Shown here in pieces: positions 2,293 to 64,000 of a stretch of DNA of 64,000 nucleotides. The notes under the pieces are model-generated. The model had not been told where the DNA came from. It worked only from the letters and a program-made list of their open reading frames with translations, and ran no database searches. This DNA comes from an uncultured bacterium. Lineage in GTDB: Bacteria > Patescibacteriota > Patescibacteriia > Magasanikbacterales > GWA2-37-8. Position 1 is the first letter of the stretch; every line of letters begins with the position of its first letter. The stretch is taken from NCBI GenBank assembly GCA_937903605.1, contig CALCZC010000028.1:70680-134679 (forward strand). The letters run 5' to 3'. The position numbers and the translations under genes were made by a program.

Positions 2293-2558
2293 ACGAAAAT
2301 GATTATAACACAGCAAATTTTTTAATTCAACCCTATTGATTTAAGCCAAAAAATCCTATTGATAACTTTTTGGTGATGTGTTAAAATTAGGTAGAGAAGG
2401 GGGTTTTTGTTTTTATAACCAGAGGAGCAAAATAGGATTCATAGCCTGCCTGCCGGCAGGCAGGCTCAGTGGTTACCAACCCGAACGTACCATTCGGTGC
2501 GGACGGGGAGCGCTGCAACCTTAAATAATAATGAAGTCTGGAGGGAATGAATTATTCT

Positions 2559-3368: not shown

Positions 3369-3977
3369 TTAAAGTTCTTCCAAAAATTTATTTAAGTGAG
3401 TTAGAGTATCTGATTTTTGATTTACTTTTAAAGCGTTGCCCCCCAATCTAGAAAACACTTCGCAAGTATTTGCCGAATCTTCAATTAAATAAGCATCTGA
3501 TATTTTGCTGTTAAAAGATGTTAAAGAATCAATAAATTGTTTTCCGTTATCATCTGTTTTCAACATGCCGGTGTCATAAGAATTAATCACATGATCAAAT
3601 AATTTATCTAATTTTAAAGAGGGGACAGTAAAACGACTAAAACAATCCATATTGCCGGTAATAAGAACAGCATGATGTTTTTTTCTTAATTTTTGGATTA
3701 TTTCAATTGTTTTATTATCTACTTTCATTTTTTGGCAATCTGAGACAAACGATTCCCAAACTTCCTTTTCAGGTAAGTTGGCCCTCTCGCTTAATAATTT
3801 ATTAATTTCCTCCGAAGTATGTTTGCCTCGCATCCAATTTTTTATCATTTCTTTTTCCGTAACAAAAAAATCGGCCACAACCTGAGAAAATGTGGGGTTT
3901 TTTGCGCTTAAAGTTTCCCAGAAACGGGAAAAACAAAGCGTGCCGTCCCAATCTATAAAAACTACTTTTCTTTTCAT
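3369..3977 (-). CDS. HAD-superfamily hydrolase-like protein
   Basis: N-terminal FIDWDGTL (DxDGT motif I of HAD hydrolases). 202 aa. Confidence 0.65.
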   Translation of the reverse strand: MKRKVVFIDWDGTLCFSRFWETLSAKNPTFSQVVADFFVTEKEMIKNWMRGKHTSEEINKLLSERANLPEKEVWESFVSDCQKMKVDNKTIEIIQKLRKKHHAVLITGNMDCFSRFTVPSLKLDKLFDHVINSYDTGMLKTDDNGKQFIDSLTSFNSKISDAYLIEDSANTCEVFSRLGGNALKVNQKSDTLTHLNKFLEEL

Positions 3978-4252: not shown

Positions 4253-6361
4253 ATGCTTTTATCCACCCCTGTTTCTCAATTGAATAAAGTCGGGAAAAAG
4301 ACCGCCGGCCATCTCAAACGTCTCAACATCAAAAATGTCGGAGATCTTTTGTCATACTTTCCTTTCCGCTACGAAGATTACCGCCAGATTTACAAAATAC
4401 GAGATTTACAAGAGGGGATGACTGCTACGGTTTTGGCGCGAGTGGAATTTATAAATAGTAAAAGAAGTAGACGACGTGGAAAAAACATTACTGAGGCTAT
4501 GGTGGGTGATGACAGCGGGTCTTTGCGCTTGATTTGGTTTAACCAACCGTATATTGCCAAGATTTTGCAAACAGGGGATCAAATATATTTATCCGGTAAA
4601 ATAAGCTCTGACATTTTTGGGGTCAAAATGAACAGTCCCCAATACGAGAAATTTAAAGAACGCCAAGCGCACACCGCGAGATTAGTGCCTATGTATCCGC
4701 TAACCCACGGTGTATCACAAAAACAGATGCGATTTTTGATGGAGCAGGTCTTACCTTTGACAGATAAAATGAAGGATTGGCTTCCTGAAAAGTTTATTGA
4801 AAAATATGATTTTGTACCTTTATCCGGAGCGGTGCGCGGAATTCATTTTCCAAACGATGAAATTGAACTAAAACAAAGCACAGACAGATTAAAATTCAAT
4901 GAATTGTTGCTTTTACAACTCAAAGCTGAAATCACGCGCGCTAGCAGGGCAAAAAGAAACGCGCCAAAGATGGAGTTTTTTGAAAACGAAATAAAAAATT
5001 TTGTTTTGGGTTTGCCTTATAAATTAACTGATACACAAAGAAGATCAGCCTGGGAGATTTTACAGGATTTACAAAAAGATATACCTATGAACAGATTACT
5101 TTCTGGAGATGTAGGTTCGGGAAAAACAATAGTGGCCGGTATTTGCTTGCTCAATGTGATTTTAAATGGTTATCAAGGTGTTTTGATGGCACCCACTGAA
5201 ATATTGGCCAATCAGCACTACAATACTCTTTGTAAATTACTTGGCGACAAAGTAAAAATCGCGATTTTAACAAATTCTAAATCTGAAATCATAAATCATC
5301 AATCTAAAATTGGGACAAAATTAGGCCAGAAGAAAGAAGTACTTGATAAGATTGGGCATGGTGAAGTAGACATCGTTGTCGGTACCCATGCACTGCTCGG
5401 TGACAAGGTGGGTTTTTCCAAATTGGGCATGGTGGTGGTGGATGAGCAACACCGATTCGGAGTAAATCAGAGAAAAACCATTAAAGAAAAAAGCGAAGGC
5501 ACGCATTTTTTGAGCATGACGGCTACGCCGATACCGCGATCTTTCGCTCTGATGGTTTATGGCGACTTGGATGTTTCTATTATTTCGCAAATGCCAATGG
5601 GGCGAAAAAAAATATTGACCAGGTTGGTGGAGGAGCATAACCGCCAAAAGGCTTATGAATTTATTCGCACCCAAGTGAAGCAGGGAAGGCAGGTTTTCGT
5701 GATTTGTCCGCTTATTGAAGAAAAAAAGAAAGAAGATGAAATAGAAATAACCAACTATCGTCCGGTTTGGAGCGCGTTGCTCGAGAAAAAAAGTGTGGTA
5801 AAAGAATTTGAAAAATTAAGCAAGACAGTGTTTCCCGATTTGAAAGTTGTTTATTTACACGGCAAAATGAAAACTGATGAAAAGGACGCGGTTATGGAAA
5901 AGTTTAAAAACAAAGAAGCTGATATTTTGGTGTCTACTTCCGTGGTGGAAGTCGGAGTGGATATTCCAAATGCTACGGTAATGATGATAGAAAATGCGGA
6001 AAGATTCGGATTGGCACAGTTGCATCAATTCCGCGGACGCGTCGGCAGGAGTGCTTACCAGTCGTATTGTTTTCTATTTACCCAAAACAGCGGACAAAAA
6101 GTTTCAGAACGTTTAAAATATTTTGAAAAAGAAAACAGCGGTTTCAAATTGGCGGAAAAGGATTTGGAAATTAGAGGGCCCGGTGATGTTTACGGTACAG
6201 CGCAAAGCGGAGAGGAAAATTTGCGTTTAGCTAAGCTTACTGATCAAGAATTGGTAAAAAAAGCGCGCGAAGTTGCCCGTGATATTGCGGTTGATTTTGA
6301 AAAATATCCGATTATAAAAAAGAAATTTTTTTCTTGGGAGAAAAGTGTACACTTAGAATAA
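4253..6361 (+). CDS. recG: ATP-dependent DNA helicase RecG
   Basis: N-terminal wedge/OB region. Helicase motifs GDVGSGKT, VVDEQHRFGV, MTATPIPRS, QLHQFRGRVGR. 702 aa. Confidence 0.9.
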   Translation: MLLSTPVSQLNKVGKKTAGHLKRLNIKNVGDLLSYFPFRYEDYRQIYKIRDLQEGMTATVLARVEFINSKRSRRRGKNITEAMVGDDSGSLRLIWFNQPYIAKILQTGDQIYLSGKISSDIFGVKMNSPQYEKFKERQAHTARLVPMYPLTHGVSQKQMRFLMEQVLPLTDKMKDWLPEKFIEKYDFVPLSGAVRGIHFPNDEIELKQSTDRLKFNELLLLQLKAEITRASRAKRNAPKMEFFENEIKNFVLGLPYKLTDTQRRSAWEILQDLQKDIPMNRLLSGDVGSGKTIVAGICLLNVILNGYQGVLMAPTEILANQHYNTLCKLLGDKVKIAILTNSKSEIINHQSKIGTKLGQKKEVLDKIGHGEVDIVVGTHALLGDKVGFSKLGMVVVDEQHRFGVNQRKTIKEKSEGTHFLSMTATPIPRSFALMVYGDLDVSIISQMPMGRKKILTRLVEEHNRQKAYEFIRTQVKQGRQVFVICPLIEEKKKEDEIEITNYRPVWSALLEKKSVVKEFEKLSKTVFPDLKVVYLHGKMKTDEKDAVMEKFKNKEADILVSTSVVEVGVDIPNATVMMIENAERFGLAQLHQFRGRVGRSAYQSYCFLFTQNSGQKVSERLKYFEKENSGFKLAEKDLEIRGPGDVYGTAQSGEENLRLAKLTDQELVKKAREVARDIAVDFEKYPIIKKKFFSWEKSVHLE

Positions 6362-6403
6362 TGTCCATTGTCATTCCTGCGAAAAAAGGAATAACAAGAT
6401 TTG

Positions 6404-14749: not shown

Positions 14750-14850
14750 AGTAAGTTAATAATTGTTTTAAATGTTAATAATTGTTCTAGATGTTTTAAA
14801 AAACAAGTGAAGCGATAAAACAATTAGAACAAGCGCTTTAGCGCGATAAA
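14750..14850. repeat. R1 dispersed intergenic repeat (TTGTTCTAGATGTT ... AACAAGTGAAGCGATAAAA ... CAATTAGAACAAGCGCTTTAGCGCGATAAA)
   Basis: Same motifs recur at 23822-23975, 24361-24415 and, inverted, at 49008-49095. Confidence 0.55.
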
Positions 14851-17782: not shown

Positions 17783-17893
17783 TTATTTACCAAGGCTAAC
17801 AAAGCCTTGGTTTTTTTATGGAGTAAACCCCGTGAAATGGCGCTTCGCGCCAATTTTTACCTTGAGGTAAAAATTATTTTACAGGGGTAAATA

Positions 17894-20761: not shown

Positions 20762-20833
20762 AAAAATTAAATCTCAAATCTCAAAATGCAAATCTCAAAA
20801 CTAAAGTATCGCTTCGCGATATCTAATTAAATT

Positions 20834-20888
20834 GTCCCGTAGGGACACCAAAGTTTTGACTTTTGACATTTGAGTTTTGAGTTTGACC
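20834..20888. repeat. R2 repeat (GTCCCGtagGGGAC hairpin plus CACCAAAGTTTTGACTTTTGA...)
   Basis: Inverted homolog at 31214-31268. Preceded by an ATCTCAAA x3 tandem at 20765-20800. Confidence 0.55.
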
Positions 20889-20898
20889 AAGTTATATT

Positions 20899-21465: not shown

Positions 21466-21543
21466 ATACTTTTATTTAACTTTAAGTTAAAATTACTTAA
21501 ATGTTTTTTTATTGTATACAAAATCGGTCTTTCTGGCAAGTAA

Positions 21544-21628
21544 ATTGAATACTGAATATTGTATATTGGATAAAACCAAAAATCCTGACCAATATTCAAT
21601 ATTTAATATTCAATATCCACTATCTATT
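21544..21628. repeat. R3 palindromic element (arms built of AATATTCAATATT / AATATCCAATATT units)
   Basis: attgaatactgaatattgtatattggata...ccaatattcaatatttaatattcaatatcc. Homologous palindrome lies inside the truB ORF at 45841-45915. Confidence 0.5.
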
Positions 21629-22796: not shown

Positions 22797-23828
22797 ATGC
22801 AAGAAAAATTGCAACAATTGAAAAACCAAGCTTTACCCGCGATTGCCAGTAGCAAAAATGAAGCGGAGCTTACGGATTTGGAAAATAAATATTTAGGTCG
22901 CAAAAACGGCGAACTGACCGAATTTATGAAGGGTCTCAAAGACCTAAATCCCGAAGAAAAGAAAAATGCCGGCCAACTACTCAATGAAATCAAAAAAGAA
23001 TTGGAAGAAGCTATAAATAAAAAAAGAGAAGAGCTCAGTAATGCCGGTTTTGCCCAAGCTATTGCTGGAGAAAAAGCGGATTTGAGTCAACCTTATTTAC
23101 CCAAAAAAGAAAGAGGGCATTTGCACCCCAATTCTATCGTGCAAAAAGAATTGGAAGATTTGTTTACCTCTATGGGTTTTATGGTGCTTGACGGACCGGA
23201 ACTAGAAAGTGATTATTACAATTTTGAAGCGATAAATATTCCTGCCACCCATCCGGCCAGAGAAAGTCAGGATACTTTTTATATCAAAAATCATGAAAAC
23301 TGGTTGGTGCGTACTCACACCTCTTCCAATCAAGTTCGTGCTATGGAAAAATATGGCGCGCCTTTGAAAATGATTACTCCAGGTCGTTGTTTTCGTAATG
23401 AAGCCACAGACGCCAGACACGAACATACTTTTTATCAATTGGAAGGTGTGGTGGTGGACAAAGATATTAATTTTGGTCACATGAAAGCGGTTTTGGAAAC
23501 CGTAGCGCAAAAATTATTTGGACCGGAGATCAAAGTTCGTTTGCGTCCGAAATTTTATCCGTTCGTTGAACCTGGGGTAAATGGAGAAGTGACTTGTTTG
23601 CTCTGTGGTGGTAAAGGATGCAATGTTTGTAAACATACCGGTTGGATGGAAATTTTTGGCGCTGGCATGATTCACCCTAACGTATTGCGAGCCGGCGGTC
23701 TTGATCCGCAAATTTATAGTGGTTTTGCTTTTGGTTTTGGTTTAACTCGTTTGGTGATGCTCAAATACGGGATAGATGATGTGAGATTATTACAGAGTGG
23801 AGACCTACGATTTGTGAGACAGTTCTAG
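22797..23828 (+). CDS. pheS: phenylalanine--tRNA ligase alpha subunit
   Basis: Class II aaRS motifs FRNEATDARHEHTFYQLEG and GAGMIHPNVL. 343 aa. Confidence 0.9.
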   Translation: MQEKLQQLKNQALPAIASSKNEAELTDLENKYLGRKNGELTEFMKGLKDLNPEEKKNAGQLLNEIKKELEEAINKKREELSNAGFAQAIAGEKADLSQPYLPKKERGHLHPNSIVQKELEDLFTSMGFMVLDGPELESDYYNFEAINIPATHPARESQDTFYIKNHENWLVRTHTSSNQVRAMEKYGAPLKMITPGRCFRNEATDARHEHTFYQLEGVVVDKDINFGHMKAVLETVAQKLFGPEIKVRLRPKFYPFVEPGVNGEVTCLLCGGKGCNVCKHTGWMEIFGAGMIHPNVLRAGGLDPQIYSGFAFGFGLTRLVMLKYGIDDVRLLQSGDLRFVRQF

Positions 23829-23975
23829 ATGTTGTAAATGTTCTAGGTGTTATAGATGTTGTAAATGTTCTAGATGTTCTAGATGTTATAGATTATCAAT
23901 TACAACAAGCGCTTTAGCGCGATAAAACAAACATAGTGGTAGAACAATTATAACAAGGGCTTTAGCCTGATAAAT
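23822..23975. repeat. R1 repeat block: tandem 12-18-mers (GTTCTAGATGTT / GTAAATGTT) then ACAACAAGCGCTTTAGCGCGATAAAA and TAGAACAATTATAACAAGGGCTTTAGCCTGATAAATT
   Basis: Direct reading. Left flank of the four-helix-bundle gene. Confidence 0.6.
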
Positions 23976-23987
23976 TATTTAATAAAT

Positions 23988-24359
23988 ATGGGAGGGTTAA
24001 ATTTTAGCTATCAAAATCTTGAAGTTACTATTTTAGCAAAAAAATTAATAAAAGAAATTTATTTTTTTACAAAAAACTTTCCAGCATCTGAAATTTACGG
24101 ACTTACAAACCAGTTAAGAAGAGCGGTAATATCAGTAGCTTTAAACATCGCAGAAGGAAGTAGTAAAAAAAGTTTTACAGATTTTAATAGGTATGTAAGA
24201 ATTGCAATAGGTTCTTTGGTAGAAGTCAATTGTGCTTTGGAAATATCTATAGAATTAGGGTATTTAAAAACAGAAGATTATGAAAAGATAAAATTAGATG
24301 TTCAGCCTCTTTATTTCAAATTAGTATCTTTATCAAAATATTTAACAAACAAGATTTAA
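23988..24359 (+). CDS. four-helix-bundle protein (23S rRNA intervening-sequence protein family)
   Basis: LTNQLRRAVISVALNIAEGSSKKSFTDFNRYVRIAIGSLVEVNCALEISIELGYL matches the conserved QLRRAAISIxSNIAEG...AxGSxxExxTxLxIA pattern of this family. 123 aa. Sits between pheS and pheT. Confidence 0.75.
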   Translation: MGGLNFSYQNLEVTILAKKLIKEIYFFTKNFPASEIYGLTNQLRRAVISVALNIAEGSSKKSFTDFNRYVRIAIGSLVEVNCALEISIELGYLKTEDYEKIKLDVQPLYFKLVSLSKYLTNKI

Positions 24360-24360
24360 A

Positions 24361-24415
24361 AATAACAAGCGCTTTAGCGCGATAAATCAATTAGAACAAG
24401 CGAAAAGCGATATAA
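24361..24415. repeat. R1 repeat (AACAAGCGCTTTAGCGCGATAAATCAATTAGAACAAGCGAAAAGCGATATAA), right flank of the four-helix-bundle gene
   Basis: Direct reading. Same core as 14821-14850 and 23903-23926. Confidence 0.6.
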
Positions 24416-24429
24416 CTATCATTAATTTT

Positions 24430-26892
24430 ATGAATATATCATACAACTGGCTGAAAAAACACGTCACTTTGCCTGATTCCATCACTCCTGAAATAGTGGC
24501 GGAAAAATTGAAATTGAGCACAGTAGAAGTGGAAAATATCATCAAACAAGGTGATAACTTGGAAAATATCGTAGTTGGTAAAGTGCTCAAAGCCGACAAA
24601 CATCCCAATGCTGATAAATTGAAACTTTGCCAAGTGGATTTGGGAAAAGAAAAAGTCCAGATTGTTTGTGGTGGCAGTAATGTTACTACTGATATGCTCG
24701 TAGCGGTGGCCAAAGTTGGTGCCAAAGTTTCTTGGCACGGCGAGGGGGAGTTGGTGGAAATCGTACCGACCAAAATCAGAGATATAGATTCCTATGGCAT
24801 GATTTGCGCGGGGAGTGAGATCGGACTGGCCGAAATGTTTCCGCCCAAAGATGAAAAAGAAATTTTGGATTTGACCGCACTGAATTTGAAAGTTGGGGCG
24901 GAGTTAAAAAAAGCGCTTGGACTCGATGATGTGATTTTGGAAATTGACAATAAATCTCTTTCCAATCGTCCCGATCTCTGGGGACACTACGGTATCGCTC
25001 GCGAAGTAGCCGTGCTTTTTCCGCGTGATTTTGGAGTTTACGAAACAAAAGATATAACTCCGGGTAAAGAAATAAAATTGAAAGTTACAGTAGAGGACGA
25101 ACCGCTTTGTCCGCGTTATATGGCGGTGGCGATAAGCGGAGTACAAGTCGGTCCGTCGCCTCTGTGGTTACAAAGAGCACTGTCATCTATCGGTTTGCGC
25201 AGTATCAATAACATCGTGGATATCACCAATTATATAATGTTTGATTTGGGGCAACCCCTTCATGCTTTTGATGCTCAAACTCTACAAACAAAAAACAAAA
25301 ATCAAAAACACATCATTGTTCGCACGGCAAATGACAAAGAAAAATTCAAACTATTGGATGAAAAAGAATTGTCCTTGACGGAAAATGATTTGGTAATTGC
25401 AGATGATGAAAAACCTATCGCGCTTGCCGGGGTAATGGGCGGATTTTATAGCGGGATAAACGACAAAACAACAGAAATTATTTTTGAAGCCGCAACTTTT
25501 GATCCGGTGTGTGTGCGTAAAACCGCGTTGCGCTACGATAGTCGCACAGATTCTTCCGCTCGTTTTGAAAAAAGCTTGGATCCCAATATGGCGGAAATAG
25601 CTTTGAAAAAAGCGGTAGAGATGGCACTGGAGCTTTGTCCGCAGGCTAAAGTGTCTAGCAATGTTGAAGATAAAAAGAATTTTCACTTAGCTACCGGACC
25701 ACTGCAAACAAGTGTGAATGACATTTGTAAAAAACTCGGAGTGCAAATTGAGAAAAAAGAAATTGTCGGCATCTTGCAAAGATTGGGTTTTGAAGTTAAA
25801 GAAAAAGGTAAAGACGGTCTGAGTGTCAAAATTCCGACTTGGCGCGCTACCAAAGATATATCGCTTTCCGAGGATTTGATTGAAGAGGTTGGTAGGATTT
25901 ACGGTTATGACAAGATAGATAGTTTCATGCCGGAATTTGAAATTACTCCGCCGGAAAAAAATATTTTACGCGATTTGGAACATAACTTGCGAAATATCTT
26001 GACCAAAGAACTTGGTTATGATGAAGTTTATAACTATTCTTTTGTCAGCGGTTTGCAAATAGATCGTCTGGGTGAAGGTAAAAATAAATATTTGGAATTA
26101 GATAATCCGCTTTCCAGTGAAAAACCTTATTTACGTCGAGAGTTGTTGCCAAACTTATTGGAAAACATTCAAAAAAATATAGAAAATTTTGATCGCGTGA
26201 ATATTTTTGAAATCGGCAAAACATATTTATCCGAATTTCCCGGTGCCAGAGCCGTGGCCAACGAAGACGATCTATTGCCACGTCAAGATACTTTTTTGAG
26301 TGTTGTAAATTATGAGAAAAAAAGCGATAACGGTTTTATCAAAGCTCGTTTGGCTTTGGAAAAAGTGATGGAAAATTTGCAACTTAGTTTTGTAGTGCGA
26401 GAGATCAAAGAAATCAAAGGTTATATGCATCCGGGCAGAGCCGGGGAGATAGTGGTAGGAGATCAAAAAATAGGTTTTATCTACGAGCTCAATCCGCTCA
26501 TTGCCAAAAAATGGGATTTAAACGACAGAGTTGGAATAGTGGAAATAAATCTCAGTGATTTGCGAGATATTTTGAAAACCAAAAAAGATTTTGTTTATCA
26601 AACATTATCTCAATTTCCGGAACCGACTCGAGACTTGGCTTTTGTGGCGGAGAAAAAAGTTACACATCAAGAAATTTTGGAAGCGTTAAAACACATTTCG
26701 CCGATTTTGAAATCCTTAGAATTGTTTGATGTTTATGAAGGCGAACACGTCAAAGCCGGATTTAAAAGTATGGCGTATCATTTTGTTTTTTCCGACTCTA
26801 CTCGTACTTTGAAGAATGAAGAGGTAGATGATGTGATGGGGGAGATAATAAAAATATTGAAAGATAAGTTTGGGGTGGAAGTGAGAGGGTAA
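24430..26892 (+). CDS. pheT: phenylalanine--tRNA ligase beta subunit
   Basis: N-terminal tRNA-binding (OB) domain VGKVLKADKHPNADKLKLCQVD. B3/4 and B5 domains. C-terminal FDVYEG motif. 820 aa. Confidence 0.9.
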   Translation: MNISYNWLKKHVTLPDSITPEIVAEKLKLSTVEVENIIKQGDNLENIVVGKVLKADKHPNADKLKLCQVDLGKEKVQIVCGGSNVTTDMLVAVAKVGAKVSWHGEGELVEIVPTKIRDIDSYGMICAGSEIGLAEMFPPKDEKEILDLTALNLKVGAELKKALGLDDVILEIDNKSLSNRPDLWGHYGIAREVAVLFPRDFGVYETKDITPGKEIKLKVTVEDEPLCPRYMAVAISGVQVGPSPLWLQRALSSIGLRSINNIVDITNYIMFDLGQPLHAFDAQTLQTKNKNQKHIIVRTANDKEKFKLLDEKELSLTENDLVIADDEKPIALAGVMGGFYSGINDKTTEIIFEAATFDPVCVRKTALRYDSRTDSSARFEKSLDPNMAEIALKKAVEMALELCPQAKVSSNVEDKKNFHLATGPLQTSVNDICKKLGVQIEKKEIVGILQRLGFEVKEKGKDGLSVKIPTWRATKDISLSEDLIEEVGRIYGYDKIDSFMPEFEITPPEKNILRDLEHNLRNILTKELGYDEVYNYSFVSGLQIDRLGEGKNKYLELDNPLSSEKPYLRRELLPNLLENIQKNIENFDRVNIFEIGKTYLSEFPGARAVANEDDLLPRQDTFLSVVNYEKKSDNGFIKARLALEKVMENLQLSFVVREIKEIKGYMHPGRAGEIVVGDQKIGFIYELNPLIAKKWDLNDRVGIVEINLSDLRDILKTKKDFVYQTLSQFPEPTRDLAFVAEKKVTHQEILEALKHISPILKSLELFDVYEGEHVKAGFKSMAYHFVFSDSTRTLKNEEVDDVMGEIIKILKDKFGVEVRG

Positions 26893-27087
26893 AAAAACAA
26901 AGCCCTAAGCTCTAATTTCTAATCTCTAAACAAGTTCAAATATAAAATTTTAAAATTTGATATTTAATATTAAATATTGTTTAGGATTTAGAATTTAGGA
27001 TTTAGTTATTAAGCTTTTTTACAAAATTTTTAAAAAGTGTTATAATATTTACAAGATAATAAATAATTAATTTAACAAGGAGGATCT

Positions 27088-27474: not shown

Positions 27475-27710
27475 ATAAAAAAACCTCGCTATAGCGAGGT
27501 TTTTTAATAGTTGCCAAAAGTTAAATTTTTAGTTATTATGAAGTAGCCAAAGGGAGGGTCTTTTTGGTTTATTTTTTTGTAGTATAACTTGGTTGTCATC
27601 CTGAACCCAAAGGGTGAAGGATCTATAAGTAAGATAAAATTATGAATTAAACGCATTGCTTTTTACAGATTCTTCGTTTCACCCAGAATGACAAAATGGT
27701 TTCGTTATTC

Positions 27711-31214: not shown

Positions 31215-31268
31215 CTCAAAAGTCAAAACTCAAAAGTCAAAACTTTGGTGTCCCGATAAATCGGGACG
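31214..31268. repeat. R2 repeat, inverted copy of 20834-20888 (CTCAAAAGTCAAAACTCAAAAGTCAAAACTTTGGTGTCCCGataaatCGGGAC)
   Basis: Reverse complement aligns to gtcccgtagggacaccaaagttttgacttttga. Confidence 0.55.
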
Positions 31269-31332
31269 ATTAATTTTAAATTTTTAATTGCAATTTTGCA
31301 TTTTTAATTTTAACTTTTAAATTTTTTGCATT

Positions 31333-33239: not shown

Positions 33240-33509
33240 TCAATTTAAATACTTTTTGCTTCGAAGAGTTTTTTCCAGTTGAATTTTTAATTCATTGTGA
33301 CCTTTACCGCCTTTAAAAAATAATTCGCGTTTTTTTGCATCATCCCTACTTAAGTATGCTTCGTAATAAATCAATTTCAAAGGTCTTCGAAATTTTGTTG
33401 CTTTTACTAAACCGTTGGAATGGTTTAAATACCTTTGCTTTAAATTATTTGTATAACCAATATACAATTTTTTGTCTTTTTGACTGTATAATATATAAAC
33501 GTAAAACAT
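33240..33509 (-). CDS. GIY-YIG nuclease superfamily protein (UPF0213-like)
   Basis: MFYVYILYSQKDKKLYIGYTNNLKQRYLNHSNG: GIY...YIG spacing plus R and N residues. 89 aa. Confidence 0.8.
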   Translation of the reverse strand: MFYVYILYSQKDKKLYIGYTNNLKQRYLNHSNGLVKATKFRRPLKLIYYEAYLSRDDAKKRELFFKGGKGHNELKIQLEKTLRSKKYLN

Positions 33510-33526: not shown

Positions 33527-33649
33527 GGACGCTAAGCGTCCTTTTAAGATTACGTTAATTTAATTGTGGAGTGGGACGCTAAGCGTCCCTATTACAACGC
33601 TCAGCTTAGAGTGGGACGCTAAGCGTCCCGAATACGACGCTAAGCGTCG
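33527..33649. repeat. cluster of four palindromic hairpins GGGACGCTAAGCGTCCC between tRNA-Met and the GIY-YIG gene
   Basis: Copies at 33527-33541, 33573-33589, 33613-33629 and 33636-33649 (GACGCTAAGCGTCG). Confidence 0.6.
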
Positions 33650-49007: not shown

Positions 49008-49095
49008 GTTTTATCGCGCTAAAGCGCTTGATATAAATGATTTATCACTTCGTTTGTTTATATAACATTTAGAACAATTATAACATTTAACAACT
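49008..49095. repeat. R1 repeat, inverted orientation (TTATCGCGCTAAAGCGCTTG ... ATTTATCACTTCGTTTGTT ... TAGAACAATTATAACA)
   Basis: Reverse complement of CAAGCGCTTTAGCGCGATAA and AACAAACGAAGTGATAAAT; compare 14802-14850. Confidence 0.55.
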
Positions 49096-49434: not shown

Positions 49435-49513
49435 GTCATCCCCGCGAAGGCGGGGATCCAGGAAAATTAAGATAGCCACTGGATTCCTCCGCCAAAGGCG
49501 GACGGGAATGACA
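49435..49513 (+). ncRNA. R5 structured element, copy 1 (three hairpins closed by a terminal GTCATCC/GGAATGAC stem); candidate small RNA or structured repeat
   Basis: gtcatccccgcgaaggcggggatccaggaaaattaagatagccactggattcctccgccaaaggcggacgggaatgaca. Followed by terminator AAACCCACTagttAGTGGGTTTTTTG at 49518-49545. Confidence 0.4.
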
Positions 49514-49833: not shown

Positions 49834-52014
49834 ATGAAAAAAAAGCAAAAAACAACAACTAAATTCGACGTAGAAAAAGATGTTGAGCTATCCGACTTAA
49901 CTAAAGAAATTCTTAGCAATGAAATTTCAAAGTTTGACGAGTACCAGGCTTGGAAAAATTTTTTTGTCAGATATATCGATCCAGATGTTGTTCATAGAAA
50001 AAAAGATATAAAGGAGTTTGAAAGAAAATTAGGCGCTGATTTTTTTGAAATTCTTTATACAATTCATTTAATAGTTTATTTAGTTGCCAATAAATTTATT
50101 ATCCAAATACAAGTACCCGATAAATTTAATGTTTCGGAAGTTATATTTGAAAATGTTTTTAAAAATTTTTCTGAAGAATCTAAAAATAAGATTGATAAAA
50201 AAATTGGCGATTTATTTATACAATTGTGTAAAGAAAATCTACACGCATATGATCTATTCGAAAATATTTATAGAACTATTTCTCCAAGAGAGATAAGAAA
50301 ACCTTTGGGTGAATATTTTACCCCCCTTTCACTTGCAGAAAAAATGGTTTCCGAAGTGGATAAAAAATATTCTGATGAAAGATGGCTAGACAACTCAAGC
50401 GGATTCGGTGTATTCTTATTTGCATATCTTGATAAATTTGGAATTAAAAATATTGAAAAATTTAGTTGCATAGATGTAAATCCGCTATCTGTTTATGTAA
50501 CCAAGGTAGCTATTTTACTAGAGTACAGGACACAATTAAATAAAATAGCTGACCTTAAAATTTATTGGGGCGATGTTCTCTTAAACGAAAGATATGAGTT
50601 TAGAGATGGGAAAATATTGGTATCAGGTAATTTTTCTGAACTTCAAAGTAATGTTGGGGTTGTGATTGGCAACCCTCCATGGGTGAGCTGGAAATCAATG
50701 ACCAAAGAATATCAAAAACTGATTGGGGATGATTGGAGAAGTTACGATATTTTTGAGAAAAATATTACAAGAAAAACACTAGGGGCTTGTAATGATGATT
50801 TGTCAAGCTATTTTGTTTATTTCTCTATAGACAAATTTTTAAAAAAACAAGGATTACTTAAGTATGTGATAAATCTCTCTTTGTTCAAGAGTAATTTAGC
50901 AGGAAAAGAATTTAGAAAATTTAATATTCAAAAAACCAACACTCCTTTCAGAATTGAAAAAATTTATGATCTTTCAAATTATAAAGTTTTTCCCGGCATA
51001 GCCAATTCATACTGTGTTTTTGATGCGACCAAAGGCGAGAAAACAATTTTTCCAGTACCTTACTCAATCATTAATGGTAAAAAAGGCAAAGAAATAGAAA
51101 GCACTATAGAAACTGGCGCTCGACCAGTAAACAATCAAGACAATGGCGCTTTGATAACAATAAACGGCAACGACCAGCAGTTCGATTCTATTGAGGGAAT
51201 TTGTGAATACAAAGCACGGGCCGGCGTGTGTACTTGGCTCAACAGTGTTTATTGGATTAGAAAAATTGAGGATGCTGGTGAATTAACTTTGGTATCCAAC
51301 CTCGGGACTATAGGTAAAAAGAAAGTAGCAGAAATAGAGAATAAAATTGAAAAAGATCTAATATTTCGCTTATTAAGAGCAAGGAATCTTAATGATTTTA
51401 ACCCGGTAATTGAAAATTATATTATTGTTCCCCAACAAAAAGATGAAATGTCAAAGCCTATTGATGAAAAAGAAATGAAGGCAAAATATAAAAATACTTT
51501 TGTATTCTTTAAAAATTTCGAAAACGAATTAATAGAAAGAAGTGGCTATAAAAAGTTTTTAAAAGGACAGCCTTTTTATGGTCTTTATAATATTGGTCCG
51601 TATACAACTGCGCCCATAAAACTTGGTTGGCAGTTCGTATCTAAAAAATTTCAAGTTTATTTAATTGATAATGCGGAAGACATAATACCGGACCTAAATG
51701 TGATGTTTATCCCTCTAGAAGATATAAATGAGGCCTATTATTTGCATGCTCTTTTGAACTCTAAATATGCTACGAAAAAAATTGAATCAAGCTCTAACTG
51801 GACATTTCCAAGTGGGTCAATACAAAAAATATATTTAGAAAAATATAATTCTAAAGATGATCTTCACACTAGTATATCGTCATTACAGCAGAAGATTTTA
51901 TCTCAAAAAATAATCGGATTAGAAGAAGAAATGGAGAAACTATTTAAGGAATATTGGTTCAATGGGAGAAAAAAGAAGCGTGAAATTACCCAAATTCAAT
52001 TATCGTTTGTATAA
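49834..52014 (+). CDS. N6-adenine DNA methyltransferase, gamma class (Eco57I/TaqI-like) with a large target-recognition region
   Basis: Motif order X then IV: GEYFTPLSLAEKMV upstream of VIGNPPWVSW (NPPW catalytic motif IV), then a long TRD. 726 aa. Confidence 0.8.
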   Translation: MKKKQKTTTKFDVEKDVELSDLTKEILSNEISKFDEYQAWKNFFVRYIDPDVVHRKKDIKEFERKLGADFFEILYTIHLIVYLVANKFIIQIQVPDKFNVSEVIFENVFKNFSEESKNKIDKKIGDLFIQLCKENLHAYDLFENIYRTISPREIRKPLGEYFTPLSLAEKMVSEVDKKYSDERWLDNSSGFGVFLFAYLDKFGIKNIEKFSCIDVNPLSVYVTKVAILLEYRTQLNKIADLKIYWGDVLLNERYEFRDGKILVSGNFSELQSNVGVVIGNPPWVSWKSMTKEYQKLIGDDWRSYDIFEKNITRKTLGACNDDLSSYFVYFSIDKFLKKQGLLKYVINLSLFKSNLAGKEFRKFNIQKTNTPFRIEKIYDLSNYKVFPGIANSYCVFDATKGEKTIFPVPYSIINGKKGKEIESTIETGARPVNNQDNGALITINGNDQQFDSIEGICEYKARAGVCTWLNSVYWIRKIEDAGELTLVSNLGTIGKKKVAEIENKIEKDLIFRLLRARNLNDFNPVIENYIIVPQQKDEMSKPIDEKEMKAKYKNTFVFFKNFENELIERSGYKKFLKGQPFYGLYNIGPYTTAPIKLGWQFVSKKFQVYLIDNAEDIIPDLNVMFIPLEDINEAYYLHALLNSKYATKKIESSSNWTFPSGSIQKIYLEKYNSKDDLHTSISSLQQKILSQKIIGLEEEMEKLFKEYWFNGRKKKREITQIQLSFV

Positions 52015-52735: not shown

Positions 52736-52956
52736 AGTATATCAATCTGCTAATTCTAGTTCTACATACTATAGTTAGCATATACAACTTTAATAATTTT
52801 AGGAAGCTTCTAATATTTTTTATGTTAGGAGGTGCGGGACGGGGGATCTGGTTAAATGGCGCTTTGCGCCAATTTTTTGAATAAAAATTATTTAACCGGG
52901 TAAACTTATCCACACCCCCTATTTTGTAGTTTTTGGAATTTCTGTGTTATTATTAA

Positions 52957-53080
52957 ACTATCAATCTATATATTGATAGTTATAAAAAGCTATTTATAAG
53001 TTGATATCTACAAATAACTATTTAAAAATTGATAGGTATAAATAGATATCTATAAATAACTATCATTATATTGATATTTT
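52957..53080. promoter_or_regulatory. cluster of operator-like palindromes and iterons (AACTATCAATctatatATTGATAGTT; GTTGATATCTAC; ATAGATATCTAT; ATAACTAT repeats)
   Basis: Direct reading. Upstream of the 53092 HTH gene and between the C-R operon and the surface-protein array. Confidence 0.45.
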
Positions 53081-53304: not shown

Positions 53305-53454
53305 AAGTGAAAATTATTAATTATTGTTTATTGATTATTAATATTTCTTTATTTCTTTCTTTAAGGGAGGGAGAAAGAAGTATTTTAAAATAATCAATAA
53401 ACAAGAGTTAAAAATAAATAAGGATAAATAAACAATAAATAATAAACAATAATT

Positions 53455-54479: not shown

Positions 54480-54552
54480 GTCATCCCTGCGAAAGCAGGG
54501 ATCCAGGAAAAGTTAAACAAGCCACTGGATTCCTGCTTTCACAGGAATGACA
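54480..54552 (+). ncRNA. R5 structured element, copy 2, with compensatory substitutions relative to copy 1
   Basis: gtcatccctgcgaaagcagggatccaggaaaagttaaacaagccactggattcctgctttcacaggaatgaca. The CCCCGC/GCGGGG stem becomes CCCTGC/GCAGGG, and TCCGCC/GGCGGA becomes TCCTG/CAGGA. Confidence 0.4.
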
Positions 54553-54563
54553 AAAACAAAACT

Positions 54564-57500
54564 ATGTATTCACGAACAGTAACACAATTTGATCTGATGA
54601 TGAAAACGATAATGATCGTGTTGTTTGTGTTTGGTTTGTTCGTATTTTTTGTTGATGTTACCAAAGCCGCACAGTGGGTAAATAATCCGGCTAATTGTGC
54701 GACCCAATCTCCCGGTGGAGAAGTTGTTTGTCAAACAAGCGAAACTCCGGATTCTCGTGTTTGTGGGGTCAGCGGAGTTCAATATTATTGTTTTTCAAGT
54801 GTGGCTGTATTTAGCGCTCCTGGATATACACAAAATAATAATCAAAATAGAAGCGGTTTAGGTGGTGGTTATATTATGGATTGTGAAGCAAACGATGGCG
54901 TTCCGCCAAGTGGGCCATTTTGTGACAATAGCACAGCTTTTTGGTGCAATAGTGATGTTACTTGTAATGATAAATTTAGAATTACTCGATGTAGCTCTAG
55001 TAAATGGGCTTATGAAGCAAATGCTTTTTCTTGTACAGATTGTATTTCAACCAGATTGGATTGTAGTGGAGATGATGTGTGTGAGGTGGTAAAAGGTGCA
55101 ACAACTTCATCCACTGTTCCAAATGCAAATTATGGAAATACTTGTGATAGCGTTGTTTGTAAAAGTGGTTATGAAAATTGCAACACTAGCACCTTGGATT
55201 GGAGTGATGGTTGCGAAATACAATTTAATGTTAGTACTTGTACAACAGGCGGAGGTGAACCGGGAGTTTGGACAGCTTGCGGAGTTTGTACAGCTTTACC
55301 GCCAAAATATTTCTTGACTGCTAGTAATACGGATTATTATTCAGACAAACCACTTCTTTGGGGAACACAACTGGGAAATGGTGATCTTGTCAGTTTCAGC
55401 AACGCAACTTCTTCAAATATTTTTGTAGTGAAAAACGATGCTTCTGTGTTTATGAGTTCCACCTTAGCCACAACCACGGATAAATATTTTTATAATTACA
55501 ACGGAGATTTATATTGGGGTGATATGAAATTGGGAACTGGTGGGGGAGTAACATATACTGCTGGCAGTGGACTAAATTTAGCCGGATATGAATTTACCAT
55601 TGATACTTCTACTGATTTTAATTGGACAGGACAGCATACTTTTAATACAACTACGACATTTCCGCTTGGAGTTTGGGGCGCGGATGGCAGGGTTGGTATT
55701 GGTACAACTACCCCTACCTCTAGTTTATCGTTAGTGGTTGGTGATTATGATGGGATTACTTTGTTTGATGCTACCGGACAAATGGCAGCGGGCTTGGGAG
55801 CCGGTGGTAGTGCAAACGCAGGACTATCTTTGTTTAATCGTATTTCTGGTGATATGAGTGTTTCTTTAAATTCTGATTCTAATTCATATATAAATAATGA
55901 TTATAATTTTGGTATTGGGACCACAACACCGGATTATAAATTTACTTTAGATGGAGATGGGTTTTTTATGGCGAGAGGATTGACTCATAATCCAATTATT
56001 TATGGTTATCAAGGTGAAATATTGGGGCAAACAGGAGAAGGTTCTAGAACATTTTTTTATCCAAGAAAATCAGCTTTTAGAAGTGGTGTAATTACTGATA
56101 TGTCAGTATTTGGTATGGCTTTTGGTTATCCATTTTCAAATGAAGTTGATCAATGGGATGATAATAATATTGGCTCGGCTTCTTTTGCAGCTAATGTAAA
56201 TAATAAAGCCAGTGGACTTTCTTCAGCGGCTTTTGGAACACACAACATTGCTTCAGGGACATCTTCTTTCGTGGGCGGTGGTAATGCTAATGAAGCCGCT
56301 GGATTAACCTCTATAGTTTTAGGCGGAACCGGTAATTTTGTTGGAGCTGAAGGATCAGGTATTGTAGGTGGTTGGTCAAACACTTCAACAGGTTTTAGTG
56401 CTTTTATCGGTGGTGGTAGATATAATATAACTTCAGGTGATTACTCTTTTATTGGTGGTGGTAGATATAATGTAGCTTTAAGTGATTATTCTGTTGCTTT
56501 TGGTAGTTATATGACGGTTTCCGGAACAAATTCTTTTGGTATAAATCTTTTTGGTGGTGGTATTTCTTCTACTCTAGCTCAAGATAATACTTTTGCAGTT
56601 ATGGGTGGAAATGTGGGGATTGGAACAACTACTCCGCAGCATACATTAACTTTGGCCGGAGATTTTGATATTGCTGAAAATGGCCTGTTAAAATTTAACG
56701 GAATTTCAGGTTCTGTTGATCAAGTTATCAAAATAAACACCTCCGGTTTTCCAGAATGGGTGGATGTTGATTCTCTTTTCATAAACAATACAACATTTAA
56801 TAGCAGCACCGAGTTTAACAGCACCAGCACTTTTAATAGCACCGCGATTTTTGAAGGGCCTTCATATTTCAATAATGATGTTTTTGTCAGCGGAACAATT
56901 TCTTCAACCAATTTATATGTAAATGGTAACAGTACAACAACCGGTGATCTGTATGTTCTCGGTCAAGCTATATTTCACGATATTTTACCAGCGGATAATT
57001 TAGCTTATGCGATAGGAACTTCTACGTTTGTTTGGAAAGAAGGTTGGTTTGGAAAAATATTTACTCCGGAAATTGATTTTACAAATAATTGGAAATTATC
57101 TACTACGACCGACGGAGGATTGGTATTTACTAGCTCTACCCAAGTGGCGTTGGCGATACTTTCTACCGGACAAGTGGGAATAAATACTACAACAATAGAA
57201 GCGAATTTAAAGATTAAGGTAGATGGAAATATTGGTTCCAAACTATATTGCGATGTAAATGGAAATAATTGTTTTGATCCGAACGCTTTCGGCTGGGCCA
57301 CTCCTCAAGCTAGATATATGAATACCACAACTGCTAATTATAATGGAAATTTTGGTAGTTTTCCGGCGGCTAGTGGGACAATTGGTTATGAAGCCGCAAA
57401 TCATATCTGTAGCTCTACGGTTGGTGTTGGTTATCATATTTGTCAGGCAAATGAAATTTTGGATATTATCAGAATTTATGGCACTAGCACGTTTGCCAGT

Positions 57501-57689
57501 AAAACAAACGGATGGGTAGCAAATGGTCCTCCAGGGTATGTCACGGTATCTACAAATGATTGTGAAGGATATACCACCTCTACCGTTAGTTTTTATGGAG
57601 CATGGTGGAAATTTAACGACAGTAGTGGTGGAGGAAGTGGAAAAATGACCAATTGCAGTACTCTCCAACCAATAGCGTGTTGTAAATAA
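54564..57689 (+). CDS. large secreted surface protein (paralog 2): signal anchor, Cys-rich N-module, Gly-rich tail-fibre-like repeats, shared C-terminal ACCK module
   Basis: N-module GGGYIMDCEANDGVPPSGPFCDNSTAFWCNSDVTCNDKFRITRC ... TCTTGGG. Repeats of type SFVGGGNANEAAG / YSFIGGGRYN. Motif MGGNVGIGTTTPQ. C-term GYEAANHIC...GPPGY...NDCEGYTT...GAWWKFNDSSGGGSGKMTNC...IACCK. 1041 aa. Confidence 0.65.
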   Translation: MYSRTVTQFDLMMKTIMIVLFVFGLFVFFVDVTKAAQWVNNPANCATQSPGGEVVCQTSETPDSRVCGVSGVQYYCFSSVAVFSAPGYTQNNNQNRSGLGGGYIMDCEANDGVPPSGPFCDNSTAFWCNSDVTCNDKFRITRCSSSKWAYEANAFSCTDCISTRLDCSGDDVCEVVKGATTSSTVPNANYGNTCDSVVCKSGYENCNTSTLDWSDGCEIQFNVSTCTTGGGEPGVWTACGVCTALPPKYFLTASNTDYYSDKPLLWGTQLGNGDLVSFSNATSSNIFVVKNDASVFMSSTLATTTDKYFYNYNGDLYWGDMKLGTGGGVTYTAGSGLNLAGYEFTIDTSTDFNWTGQHTFNTTTTFPLGVWGADGRVGIGTTTPTSSLSLVVGDYDGITLFDATGQMAAGLGAGGSANAGLSLFNRISGDMSVSLNSDSNSYINNDYNFGIGTTTPDYKFTLDGDGFFMARGLTHNPIIYGYQGEILGQTGEGSRTFFYPRKSAFRSGVITDMSVFGMAFGYPFSNEVDQWDDNNIGSASFAANVNNKASGLSSAAFGTHNIASGTSSFVGGGNANEAAGLTSIVLGGTGNFVGAEGSGIVGGWSNTSTGFSAFIGGGRYNITSGDYSFIGGGRYNVALSDYSVAFGSYMTVSGTNSFGINLFGGGISSTLAQDNTFAVMGGNVGIGTTTPQHTLTLAGDFDIAENGLLKFNGISGSVDQVIKINTSGFPEWVDVDSLFINNTTFNSSTEFNSTSTFNSTAIFEGPSYFNNDVFVSGTISSTNLYVNGNSTTTGDLYVLGQAIFHDILPADNLAYAIGTSTFVWKEGWFGKIFTPEIDFTNNWKLSTTTDGGLVFTSSTQVALAILSTGQVGINTTTIEANLKIKVDGNIGSKLYCDVNGNNCFDPNAFGWATPQARYMNTTTANYNGNFGSFPAASGTIGYEAANHICSSTVGVGYHICQANEILDIIRIYGTSTFASKTNGWVANGPPGYVTVSTNDCEGYTTSTVSFYGAWWKFNDSSGGGSGKMTNCSTLQPIACCK

Positions 57690-59615: not shown

Positions 59616-59620
59616 AATAA

Positions 59621-62600: not shown

Positions 62601-64000
62601 ATGAATGAAGTGAGCGGGTATAATTCTGTGGCATTTGGAAACAAAATGAATGTTAGTGGTGCTTATTCTTTTGGTATAAATTTAGAACCAGACGATGAGG
62701 GAGGTGTTGTTAATTTGTCAAATGATAGAGTTTTGGCAGTTATGGGCGGGAACGTGGGGATTGGGACCAGTAATCCTCTTGCGAAATTATCTCTTGATAA
62801 CGATGGTTCAATTTTAGCTCAAGGAACCTCTGGATCTGGTTGGAATGGTGGAACTCTTGGCGCTGGGTCTAGAATGATGTGGATAGCGAGTAAAGGTGCT
62901 TTTAGGGCGGGTAAAACTTGGGGAACAAATTGGGATACAACTAAAATAGGTTTTAATTCTATTGCTCTTGGTGAGGATCATTTAGTAACAAGCTCTTTTG
63001 GATTTGCTGCTGGGGGTAGAAGTCATGAAATAACAGGGGATTCTTCAGTTGTAATAGGTGGAGAAAATAATATTATTTCTGATAGTAATTCAGGTATTAT
63101 TGCTGGTTGGAATAATATTATATCAGATAGGTATTCTGTTATTTCTGGTGGTCAGGATAATTTAATTTCAAATGAATTTTCATTTATTGGTGGTGGTACT
63201 AACAACACTGTTTCAGGAGCTGGTTCTGTAATATTTGGTGGTTATAACAACACTGTTTCAGGAAATTATTCTTCTGCTTTTGGTTATAATATGAATGTTT
63301 CGGGAGGTTATTCTTTTGGTATTAATGTTAGTACTACAGCTGCAACACTTTCTCGAGATAATACCATTGCTTTGATGGGAGGTAATGTGGGGATTGGGAC
63401 GACCTCGCCACAATCTTTATTGGATGTATCTGGCGACAGTGCTACAATTAGAATTTCAGATCATTCTTCCACAAGAATACCAGCATTAATTTTTATGAGA
63501 GGTACTAGTACTGTATTTGGAGAAGATATTTGGACAGATTGGAAAATTGAAAATAATTCTGGTGAGCTTAGGTTTAGTGCTAACGCAAATGGAGTTTCTA
63601 CAACATCTTTATATTTAGGTTCATCAGGTAAGATAGGTATGAATACTATTCCTTTAACCTCGCTACACCTTGCTGGTGATGGAGCGATTTTGGCGACAGG
63701 AACTTATGGATCTGGCTGGGATGGAGGATCTCTTGGTGCAGGAACAAGATTGATGTGGATACCAAGTAAAGGTGCTTTTAGAGTAGGATATGTGAATGGA
63801 ACAGAATGGGACGAGACGAATATAGGCGCTTACTCTGCGGTTTTTGGTTATAATAGTTTAGCATCAGGCAGTCGTTCTTTTATTGGCGGTGGTTATAATA
63901 GTAGTGTAACTGGAAATTATTCCTCTGTAATTGGAGGTTTTAATAATAAGGTTGCAGGTGCAAATTCATTTATTGGTGCAGGTTCAAGTAATTTTGTTTC
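59621..64000 (+). CDS. giant secreted surface protein (paralog 4), 5' portion only (frame stays open to the window end; over 1450 aa in window)
   Basis: Not in the ORF track because no stop falls in the window. Signal MNIQKMVQFISFKKAFFIALLVFSFSIIFVDSAKAA. Same Cys-rich N-module (GGYVVDCHAYDASPLPDGPFCDNNTNFWCSPDPSCNSLYVKTTC; TTGCISGYANCNIGTSDPNNCEVRIGVTTCTGAGGLQGTFNASCDCIV). Seven LVIVD-type repeats (RYAYVGN...NNFRIIDISNP). Many Gly-rich YSFIGGGxNNxVSG repeats. Recurrent MGGNVGIGTTSPQ motif. Confidence 0.6.

Follow-up and report, generated by a model that had tools for sequence, protein, structure and literature searches.

Intervening sequences (IVSs) that interrupt ribosomal RNA (rRNA) genes and carry an S23p open reading frame (ORF) are known from Coxiella burnetii and Leptospira (PMC4990558). 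In the 23S rRNA IVS of Coxiella this ORF is accompanied by tandem heptamers (GACAGAT ×3, in a copy number that varies between strains) and by a 28-bp terminal inverted repeat that is cut by RNase III (PMC4990558). Members of this protein family have also been reported from rRNA insertions of candidate-phyla bacteria (bioRxiv 10.1101/2024.02.27.582315), and a four-helix-bundle (4HB) gene of Flavobacterium lies in a gmk/nadD context (PMC5524665). The origin and purpose of rRNA IVSs and of their 4HB ORF have been a question since the early 1990s. Here we describe a 4HB gene in a 64,000-nt stretch of contig CALCZC010000028.1 from an uncultured bacterium of the Magasanikbacterales, named the window hereafter (WIN). 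The gene sits in a ~600-nt insert that splits pheS from pheT, the genes coding the alpha and beta subunits of phenylalanyl-tRNA synthetase (PheRS). The reading that we favour, with moderate confidence, is that the ORF is a functional member of the 23S rRNA IVS/4HB family carried by an IVS-type insert that is old, inherited in place and under selection. Loci of relatives are designated by L-numbers.

The 4HB gene between pheS and pheT

The features of the locus, and of two ORF-less relatives of its dispersed repeat (termed R1 in an earlier note on this DNA), are the following.

22797–23828, + strand: pheS (PheRS alpha subunit; Pfam tRNA-synt_2d, E 3e-90), with its TAG stop inside the first 9-mer of the array
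23822–23893, + strand: G/T-rich 5′ arm of 8 tandem 9-mers (GTTCTAGAT / GTTGTAAAT / GTTATAGAT), defined by Tandem Repeats Finder (TRF) and frame translation
23904–23926, + strand: left R1 core module with hairpin GCGC-TTTA-GCGC at 23909–23920, in the loop of the left-flank stem
23940–23955, + strand: A/C-rich arm TAGAACAATTATAACA, pairing over 16 nt with the 9-mer array at 88% complementarity
23952–23974, + strand: diverged core-like module AACAAGGGCTTTAGCCTGATAAA with hairpin GGGC-TTTA-GCC (3-mismatch match, folded), just before the 4HB start
23988–24359, + strand: 4HB gene, 123 aa, 23S rRNA IVS protein/four-helix-bundle family (Pfam, NCBIfam)
24364–24386, + strand: right R1 core module, common to WIN, L106 and L011
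24383–24414, + strand: right A/C-rich arm (TCAATTAGAACAAG) and degenerate module ACAAGCGAAAAGCGATATA, ~15–45 nt before the pheT ATG
24430–26892, + strand: pheT (PheRS beta subunit; Pfam B3_4, B5, tRNA_synthFbeta, FDX-ACB)
14755–14850, − strand: R1-A, ORF-less, NUDIX/clpC spacer (fold z −4.3 on the transcribed strand)
49008–49095, + strand: R1-C, ORF-less, infB/trxA spacer (fold z −2.2)

The earlier note had read the segment between pheS and pheT as a 123-aa ORF of the 23S rRNA IVS family, and both the assignment and the coordinates hold. Two family profiles match the protein above their curated cut-offs, PF05635 23S_rRNA_IVP (E 3e-29; 101.8 bits, cut-off 33.8; residues 9–107 on profile positions 1–99 of 106) and TIGR02436, entitled four helix bundle protein (E 1e-27; 96.5 bits, cut-off 24). 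Its residues 17–119 match in sequence the solved pentamer XCC0516 (PDB 2GSC; E 3e-21). The three genes are co-directional on the + strand. In the AT-rich window (36.6% G+C) the 4HB gene has a G+C content of 26% and a third-codon-position G+C content (GC3) of 16%, the values for pheS and pheT being ~40% and 35–38%. The 800 nt from 23701 to 24500 are 100% identical to contig NODE_258 of the anaerobic-digester metagenome ERZ724082, whose pheS and 4HB proteins and gene order are also those of the window. The closest named relatives of the window are metagenome-assembled genomes (MAGs) of Candidatus Magasanikbacteria.

The anatomy of the insert is IVS-like, with a 5′ G/T tandem array, A/C arms 3′ of the array and 3′ of the ORF, and interspersed GC hairpin modules. 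It shares with the rRNA IVSs of Coxiella and Leptospira (PMC4990558) a PF05635 ORF inside the element, partly complementary sequences on either side of this ORF, a position within a presumed transcription unit and the existence of ORF-less versions. As in Coxiella, tandem repeats lie just upstream of the ORF. The tandem run noted earlier on the left of the gene is confirmed at 23822–23893 (period 9, 8 copies, 80% matches by TRF), and the copy number varies among relatives (8 in WIN, 5 in both L106 and L011), as it does between Coxiella strains. The stop codon of pheS falls within the first 9-mer. The seven units after it (23829–23891), taken in the frame of pheS, are each a mini-ORF made of a start codon, one codon and a stop (ML, MF, VL, ML, MF, MF and ML, each followed by the stop), an arrangement that is the same in L011 and L106. 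The insert differs from rRNA IVSs in that it is placed between two protein-coding cistrons and not in a 23S or 16S rRNA helix such as helix 25 or 45 of 23S rRNA. Its terminal stem is also weak, its flanks are mostly direct repeats, and excision by RNase III would be assumed here by analogy.

Several other identities were considered for the protein and its insert. A role in a known defence system was dropped because a PADLOC search with the 4HB protein gave no match, and a phage link of this 4HB type was dropped because the viral contig collection held no relative of it. A known RNA family was likewise set aside: Rfam returned no match up to E=1 within 23700–24500, and the gathering search of the whole window found four tRNAs only. 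Some homologues match PF22296 bAvd as well as PF05635, the Pfam family that includes the accessory variability determinant (Avd) of diversity-generating retroelements, a protein of the same pentameric four-helix-bundle type. That the 4HB protein is such an Avd is nevertheless hardly credible. It matches PF05635 only in Pfam, its immediate neighbours are pheS and pheT, and none of the genes called in the 10 kb to each side has a reverse transcriptase domain (no search was aimed at a template/variable repeat pair).

Filled and empty pheS/pheT junctions in relatives

A PheS scan of species-representative genomes provided 80 loci (18 from Patescibacteria, 62 from others). The gap between pheS and pheT is 1–50 nt in 61 of the 62 non-Patescibacteria loci, the odd one being L094, which has no pheT match, and in most of the 18 from Patescibacteria. 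The sister species L017 (PheS 87% identical) and L102 (pheS 83% identical in nucleotides) have neither a 4HB gene nor repeats at this place, only spacers of 13 and 12 nt, respectively. Empty sites are also found in most other Patescibacteria and Firmicutes; in the majority of relatives, these two sisters among them, the gap is 1–13 nt. Tight coupling in the sisters and in most relatives indicates that this arrangement is ancestral and that the ~600-nt insert is derived. The layout pheS–4HB–pheT is nevertheless present in three further lineages, the Magasanikbacteria MAG L011, L013 and L016. The comparison of pheS–pheT spacing suggested in the earlier note tells both ways: the insert was gained, as the empty sites of L017 and L102 show, but it is old, being shared by four lineages. 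The note had also taken a layout conserved without flanking repeats as the sign of an ancestral operon member; the layout is conserved, but it always comes with related inverted arms.

Identity of the 4HB protein to that of the window (73, 59 and 56% for L011, L013 and L016) tracks that of PheS (87, 60 and 56%) and of PheT (80, 46 and 52%). A neighbour-joining (NJ) tree, built from these two proteins and with L011 partial, groups (L011,(WIN,L017)) with bootstrap values of 100 and 99%. L017 is thus nested among 4HB carriers, from which it follows that the insert was lost cleanly in at least this sister lineage. L016 and L013 are placed in two further subclades, both of which also have 4HB-free sisters, and the host clade holding both has just 47% support. 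The 4HB proteins group by identity as (WIN,L011) and (L013,L016), which is compatible with the host tree. Relative to L011 the dN/dS ratio (nonsynonymous over synonymous divergence) is 0.16 for the 4HB gene, 0.065 for pheS and 0.087 for pheT; dS of the 4HB gene is about two-thirds of that of pheS and pheT. Purifying selection acts on the 4HB gene; the ORF of Coxiella, in contrast, is decaying. The exact 4HB protein was found at pheS/pheT in all nine places listed for it (15 contigs read). The simplest history is one old insertion in the ancestor of a Magasanikbacteria-related subclade followed by vertical inheritance and several losses. The insert is, in our assessment, an old, stably inherited and dispensable IVS-type resident of the junction, not an active cassette.

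The same facts can be viewed in another way, with the 4HB gene as an original part of the operon that serves the host. Its product would act, specifically in this lineage, as an accessory or regulator of PheRS expression, and the neighbouring repeats would be unrelated, ordinary intergenic structures. The co-directional synteny conserved in four lineages, the identity that follows that of the neighbours, the dN/dS of 0.16, the single copy (among the nine places listed for the exact protein) and the spacers without promoter or terminator all agree with it. We regard it as unlikely, since the gene is absent from the sisters L017 and L102 and from most relatives, has a GC3 of 16% against ~36% in its neighbours, belongs to a family whose other members reside in unrelated operons (glycosyltransferase genes, icd/cstA, rpiB/rpe, gmk/nadD in Flavobacterium), and is flanked by an arm motif specific to 4HB-bearing genomes (see below). 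In addition, L024 carries at the same pheS/pheT junction a different 4HB type, only 34% identical, and in L023 another type (35% identical) lies just upstream of pheS. A history with repeated site-specific insertion at pheS/pheT may thus also be considered beside the single old insertion that we prefer. Inserts of other kinds occur at this junction in L022 (5030–5200, ~170 nt that include a direct repeat of 35 nt and a (TTC)n run) and in the Gracilibacteria locus L030 (5060–6000, ~940 nt).

Comparison with the strain variants L002, L003, L004 and L008 gave 3 mismatches in 601 nt of the insert (23829–24429), where 24.9 were expected from the flanking genes. The ORF has 0 differences in 372 nt, the adjoining parts of pheS and pheT differ by 5–6%, and no indels were found in the insert among strains. 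This low divergence was not counted as cassette transfer: the search that yielded these strains required an identical 4HB protein, which in itself selects for a tract around the gene that coalesced recently, and other stretches of comparable length in these sequences also show low divergence. It is probably an artefact of that retrieval in a recombining population.

Arms, R1 cores and ORF-less copies

The R1 core (AACAAGCGCTTTAGCGCGATAAA) is exact at 14828(+), 23904(+) and 24364(+), with one mismatch at 49010(−) and three at 23952(+), i.e., five matches in the window where none is expected. The arm TAGAACAATTATAACAAG is exact at 23940 and has two mismatches at 14816 and 49070 and three at 24383 (four matches against 0.11 expected). 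The placement of core copies on both sides of the 4HB gene, and of R1 without cargo at clpC/NUDIX and at infB/trxA, as given in the earlier note, was recovered; the neighbours named there (clpC, NUDIX, infB and trxA) are also correct, Pfam upholding the ClpC, NUDIX, IF-2 and thioredoxin identities. There are three R1 loci in the 64 kb. All three combine a G/T-rich arm, made up of units like GTTCTAGAT, with an A/C-rich arm complementary to it (ACAATTAGAAC or ACAATTATAAC) and with small modules in which a short hairpin stands between ACAAG and GATAAA. In the variant called the core this hairpin is GCGC-TTTA-GCGC; “R1” is composed of an arm plus a small GC-hairpin module. The elements are polar with respect to transcription of their neighbours: the G/T arm invariably lies on the 5′ side and the A/C arm on the 3′ side, where it ends ~5–35 nt before the next start codon (clpC, trxA, 4HB and pheT). 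In the sense of transcription R1-A consists of core, G/T arm, small module and two A/C arms, followed by the clpC ATG, and R1-C of core (reading TTTATCGCGCTAAAGCGCTTGA), small module and A/C arm, followed by the trxA ATG at 49103.

These elements form hairpins. Fold z-scores were calculated against 200 shuffles. R1-A and the left 4HB flank (R1-B1, 23829–23975; z −2.4 on the + and −3.6 on the − strand) yield long imperfect hairpins that beat the shuffles (z −4.3 and −3.6 on the better strand), and R1-C is weaker (z −2.2). The left flank is by itself a full R1-type stem-loop with a small hairpin; the right flank folded alone gave no significant structure. R1-A and R1-C, upstream of clpC and trxA, are hairpin-forming ORF-less relatives of the 4HB flanks and look like derivatives of them. 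R1 also shares with miniature inverted-repeat elements the filled and empty sites between close relatives, the NUDIX/clpC spacer having a length of 106 nt and an R1 in both WIN and L103 but of only 8 nt in L102. When filled and empty sites were compared, at the ~17% nucleotide divergence of these relatives, no target-site duplication, which the note had suggested looking for at the R1 boundaries, was recognisable. The resemblance of the A/C arm to the pheS 3′ end (GAACAATTTTAA in relatives) was examined as a possible target duplication and rejected, because the arm is the reverse complement of the 9-mers.

The Correia elements of Neisseria are an example of miniature inverted-repeat elements whose hairpins are transcribed. 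Similar to them, R1 and the remaining array elements of the window (see below) are ~100 nt long, intergenic, placed within operons and folded into long imperfect hairpins, and vary in presence or position between sister species. They differ in that their arms are arrays of 7–9-nt tandem units instead of unique terminal inverted repeats, that no target-site duplication is seen and that the 64 kb analysed contain few copies. We know of no cognate transposase for R1-type elements.

The position of the A/C arm shortly before the clpC, trxA, 4HB and pheT starts, in the sense of the downstream gene and preserved in WIN, L011, L013 and L016, could mean that R1 serves in gene expression, as promoter, terminator or translation leader, and flanks the 4HB gene by chance. 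We give this little credit. No sigma-70-like promoter and no intrinsic-terminator-like site was found at any of the three R1 loci, whose spacers have no promoter or terminator consensus, and the core hairpin has a stem of only 4 base pairs, short of the five or more G+C-rich pairs followed by a T run that define a terminator. Ordinary TTGACA/TATAAT promoters and Shine-Dalgarno sites do occur in the lineage (27018–27046; L017), and clpC and pheT of L102 manage with spacers of 8 and 12 nt. R1 as a promoter or terminator was thus discarded, and with it the caveat of the note that R1 might be a ubiquitous terminator motif.

Comparison of the flanks among 4HB carriers separates the parts that belong to the gene from those that do not. 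In L106 (4HB 89% identical) and L011 (73%) the left flank consists of five 9-mers without GC hairpin or left core, and the right-hand core is kept in WIN, L106 and L011. The missing left core implies that the one in the window is a recent gain of a ~40-nt module. Both core copies are absent from the L013 and L016 loci, which nevertheless retain a G/T-rich left arm and a right arm reading (G/C)AACAATTATAAC; the pairing GTTCTA:TAGAAC of WIN is matched by a compensatory GTTGAA:TTCAAC in L016. The arm motif ACAATTA[GT][AT]?AAC is limited to genomes with the 4HB type of the window, where it is found at the 4HB flanks or in R1-A/R1-C, and it has 0 matches in ~67 kb from seven 4HB-free relatives. Since the arms are kept with the gene and their motif is specific to 4HB-bearing genomes, they belong with the 4HB gene. 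What travels with the gene is the 5′ G/T-rich short tandem array with the complementary 3′ A/C-rich arms (ACAATTAKAAC); the GC-hairpin core is a secondary module, not the end of the element. Such modules seem to be shared across species: a 20-nt GC palindrome (CCTGCCTGCCGGCAGGCAGG) upstream of tRNA-Val in the window (2445–2464) is also present in the right 4HB flank of L013 (6375–6396), although PheS of L013 is only 60% identical to that of the window.

These results bear on the proposal of the earlier note that the insert is a small selfish cassette with R1 as its ends. The first part stands insofar as this is an insertion with its own repeat flanks, which also exist without cargo, and as the sites in L017 and L102 are empty; the second does not. 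An active cassette moved or excised by recombination between R1 direct repeats would account for the exact 23-nt core on both sides of the gene, for the cargo-free R1 elsewhere and for the empty sites. We find it improbable, as the left core is missing in L106 and L011 and both cores in L013 and L016, and as recombination between R1 copies would leave one R1 behind, whereas the empty sites are 12–13 nt long and have none. Moreover, no target-site duplication or recombinase was seen, the insert has no indels among strains, and it is old and confined to a single locus, with the same synteny in four lineages.

For the old resident element that we favour, we infer both mobility and RNA processing along the following lines. 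The 4HB gene would be transcribed by read-through within pheS–4HB–pheT. The G/T and A/C arms may pair in the transcript like the terminal repeats of rRNA IVSs, and by the same analogy the paired arms could be processed, as in rRNA IVSs where RNase III cuts, or simply tolerated. With its arms paired, an insert between two essential cistrons would cost little, and ORF-less copies could arise from the 4HB flanks. A number of observations weigh against this reading. The stem that would bracket the ORF in the window is weak, the right A/C arm and the 9-mer array being complementary over 16 nt at 75% (z −0.85 to −0.92), and the flanks of the ORF are mainly direct repeats (the R1 core itself is one), with 25 shared direct 7-mers against 3 inverted. 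The fold of the whole 621-nt pheS–pheT spacer as transcript is no better than that of shuffles (z −0.67). An exact scan of the metagenome collection with the 21-nt core found just the pheS–4HB–pheT and NUDIX/clpC loci of strain variants. Vertical inheritance needs at least 4–5 independent losses on the NJ tree, some deep nodes of which have less than 50% support. Finally, the G+C content of the 4HB gene is low in all of WIN, L011, L013 and L016 (26–31% against 34–45% in the neighbours; GC3 16–28% against 19–47%), which could mean repeated re-acquisition. In the orthologues the complementary termini that bracket the ORF are stronger than in the window (z −4.8 in L016 and −3.0 in L013); the RNA-stem step, given the weak stem of the window, rests mainly on them and on the wider family.

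4HB elements and hairpin arrays beyond this junction

The flanks of further 4HB genes were inspected at three loci from other bacteria, a single L024-type locus and 19 loci on viral contigs, a set in which the viral contigs may include misclassified bacterial DNA and not all loci are phylogenetically independent. The genes are typically wedged co-directionally within one operon (glycosyltransferase genes, icd/cstA, rpiB/rpe). Nearly all are preceded by short tandem units that recur downstream as the reverse complement, the unit differing per element. In the 17 4HB loci whose flanks were long enough to be scored, the 120-nt flanks share a median of 8 inverted 7-mers against 1.5 for 198 other genes (p=5e-7), a background inflated by AT-rich low-complexity sequence. 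Direct 7-mers between 4HB flanks are not enriched (p=0.33), the window being an outlier with its 25 direct and 3 inverted ones. The mean duplex z of the flanks is −3.0 at 4HB genes and −0.22 at the others (p=1e-4). The upstream arm has G>C in 21 of 23 loci, C>G in one and a tie in one (p=1e-5). In the L024-type 4HB genes the flank motif CTTGTAGG/CCTACAAG is kept at two junctions, pheS/pheT (L024) and rpiB/rpe (L107).

For the L024 gene (4420–4788) databases contain more than 5,000 relatives at E<=1e-10. An identity of 68–84% is reached by more than 120 of these, which come from several candidate phyla and in many cases from contigs shorter than 2 kb. This type is far more conserved than the host PheS, as expected of a spreading or multi-copy element. 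The sugar-metabolism operon of L107 that holds its 4HB gene has two other wedged ORFs, a PDDEXK_3 ORF (797–1204) between a perfect 15-nt inverted repeat (ACGAAATTACGAAAT / ATTTCGTAATTTCGT) and a DUF559 ORF (4394–4744) between ~50-nt direct repeats. The sole non-4HB gene with strongly complementary flanks (z −4.5) is a 98-aa GIY-YIG ORF in L100 (5631–5927).

Hairpin arrays are also a feature of intergenic DNA in this genome. Many spacers (20762–20898, 21535–21625, 26893–27012, 31215–31332, 52950–53080 and 53305–53454) have the same design, 7–9-nt tandem units and small GC hairpins followed by the reverse complement of those units, with a unit that differs per site, and fold with z −2.2 to −5.3 relative to shuffles. 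One family (CTCTAA/TTTAGG) is found downstream of pheT in WIN, is absent there in L017, and lies between LemA and M48 in L102 (6108–6231). In a strain whose pheT is 95.5% identical in nucleotides the content after pheT is entirely different. R1 is thus one of several ~100-nt families of inverted short tandem repeats that fill spacers, with positions that vary between sister species or strains; these families turn over fast, and R1 is not a special mark of the 4HB location. Intergenic arrays of 7-nt units were described from cyanobacteria, as short tandemly repeated heptamers, and from Xanthomonas and Nostoc, where the repeats are G-rich and of the GGGAATC type (PMC4692102). They share with the present ones a length and sequence that vary between close relatives while the flanking genes are unchanged. 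The arrays described here differ in being inverted pairs with a fixed polarity around an ORF, and that work (PMC4692102) makes no mention of a 4HB or intervening-sequence gene.

The window contains further repeats and unusual segments. A dispersed repeat of ~75 nt with inverted ends (GTCATCCCYGCGAARGCRGGGATCCAGG ... GGAATGAC) resembles a miniature inverted-repeat element and occurs at 49435–49512, 54480–54551, ~27593–27692 and 6370–6400, as well as after pheT in L003 (~3670–3790). A hairpin repeat (AATGGCGCTTYGCGCCAATTTTT) has two copies in unrelated spacers (17836–17858 and 52855–52877). An 89-aa GIY-YIG ORF adjoins three copies of the hairpin GGACGCTAAGCGTCC beside tRNA-Met (33240–33509, 33527–33628). 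An Eco57I-type restriction-modification methylase (49834–52014, E 1.8e-12) lies in a region rich in dispersed repeats. Two large ORFs of 1041 and 633 aa without Pfam match (54564–57689, 57714–59615), with 45-nt tandem repeats at 56401–56492 and also at 63066–63161, precede more than 4 kb almost devoid of long ORFs (59616–64000).

A search of full-text literature found no paper describing 4HB genes with flanking arrays outside rRNA. We advance tentatively, as a possibility, that 4HB genes with polar arrays (G-rich 5′, C-rich 3′) form one widespread class of insertion element that invades transcribed DNA, both rRNA genes and housekeeping-operon junctions. ORF-less derivatives such as R1 and CTCTAA/TTTAGG might then make up much of the intergenic DNA of candidate phyla, the polarity might reflect a step at the RNA level (processing or spread by an RNA intermediate), and the Avd-like pentamer might be the nucleic-acid-binding factor of the element itself.

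The main value of the locus is as an entry point to the biology of 4HB/intervening-sequence elements. It and its relatives show the anatomy of rRNA IVSs outside rRNA, with filled and empty sites in sister species, element-specific arms and ORF-less copies, and a strand polarity common to unrelated bacteria. A vaguely annotated “hypothetical four helix bundle protein” becomes in this way a comparative system for element boundaries, gains and losses, and RNA processing. For the annotation of candidate-phyla genomes, much intergenic DNA appears to consist of fast-turnover hairpin arrays and not of regulatory sequence.

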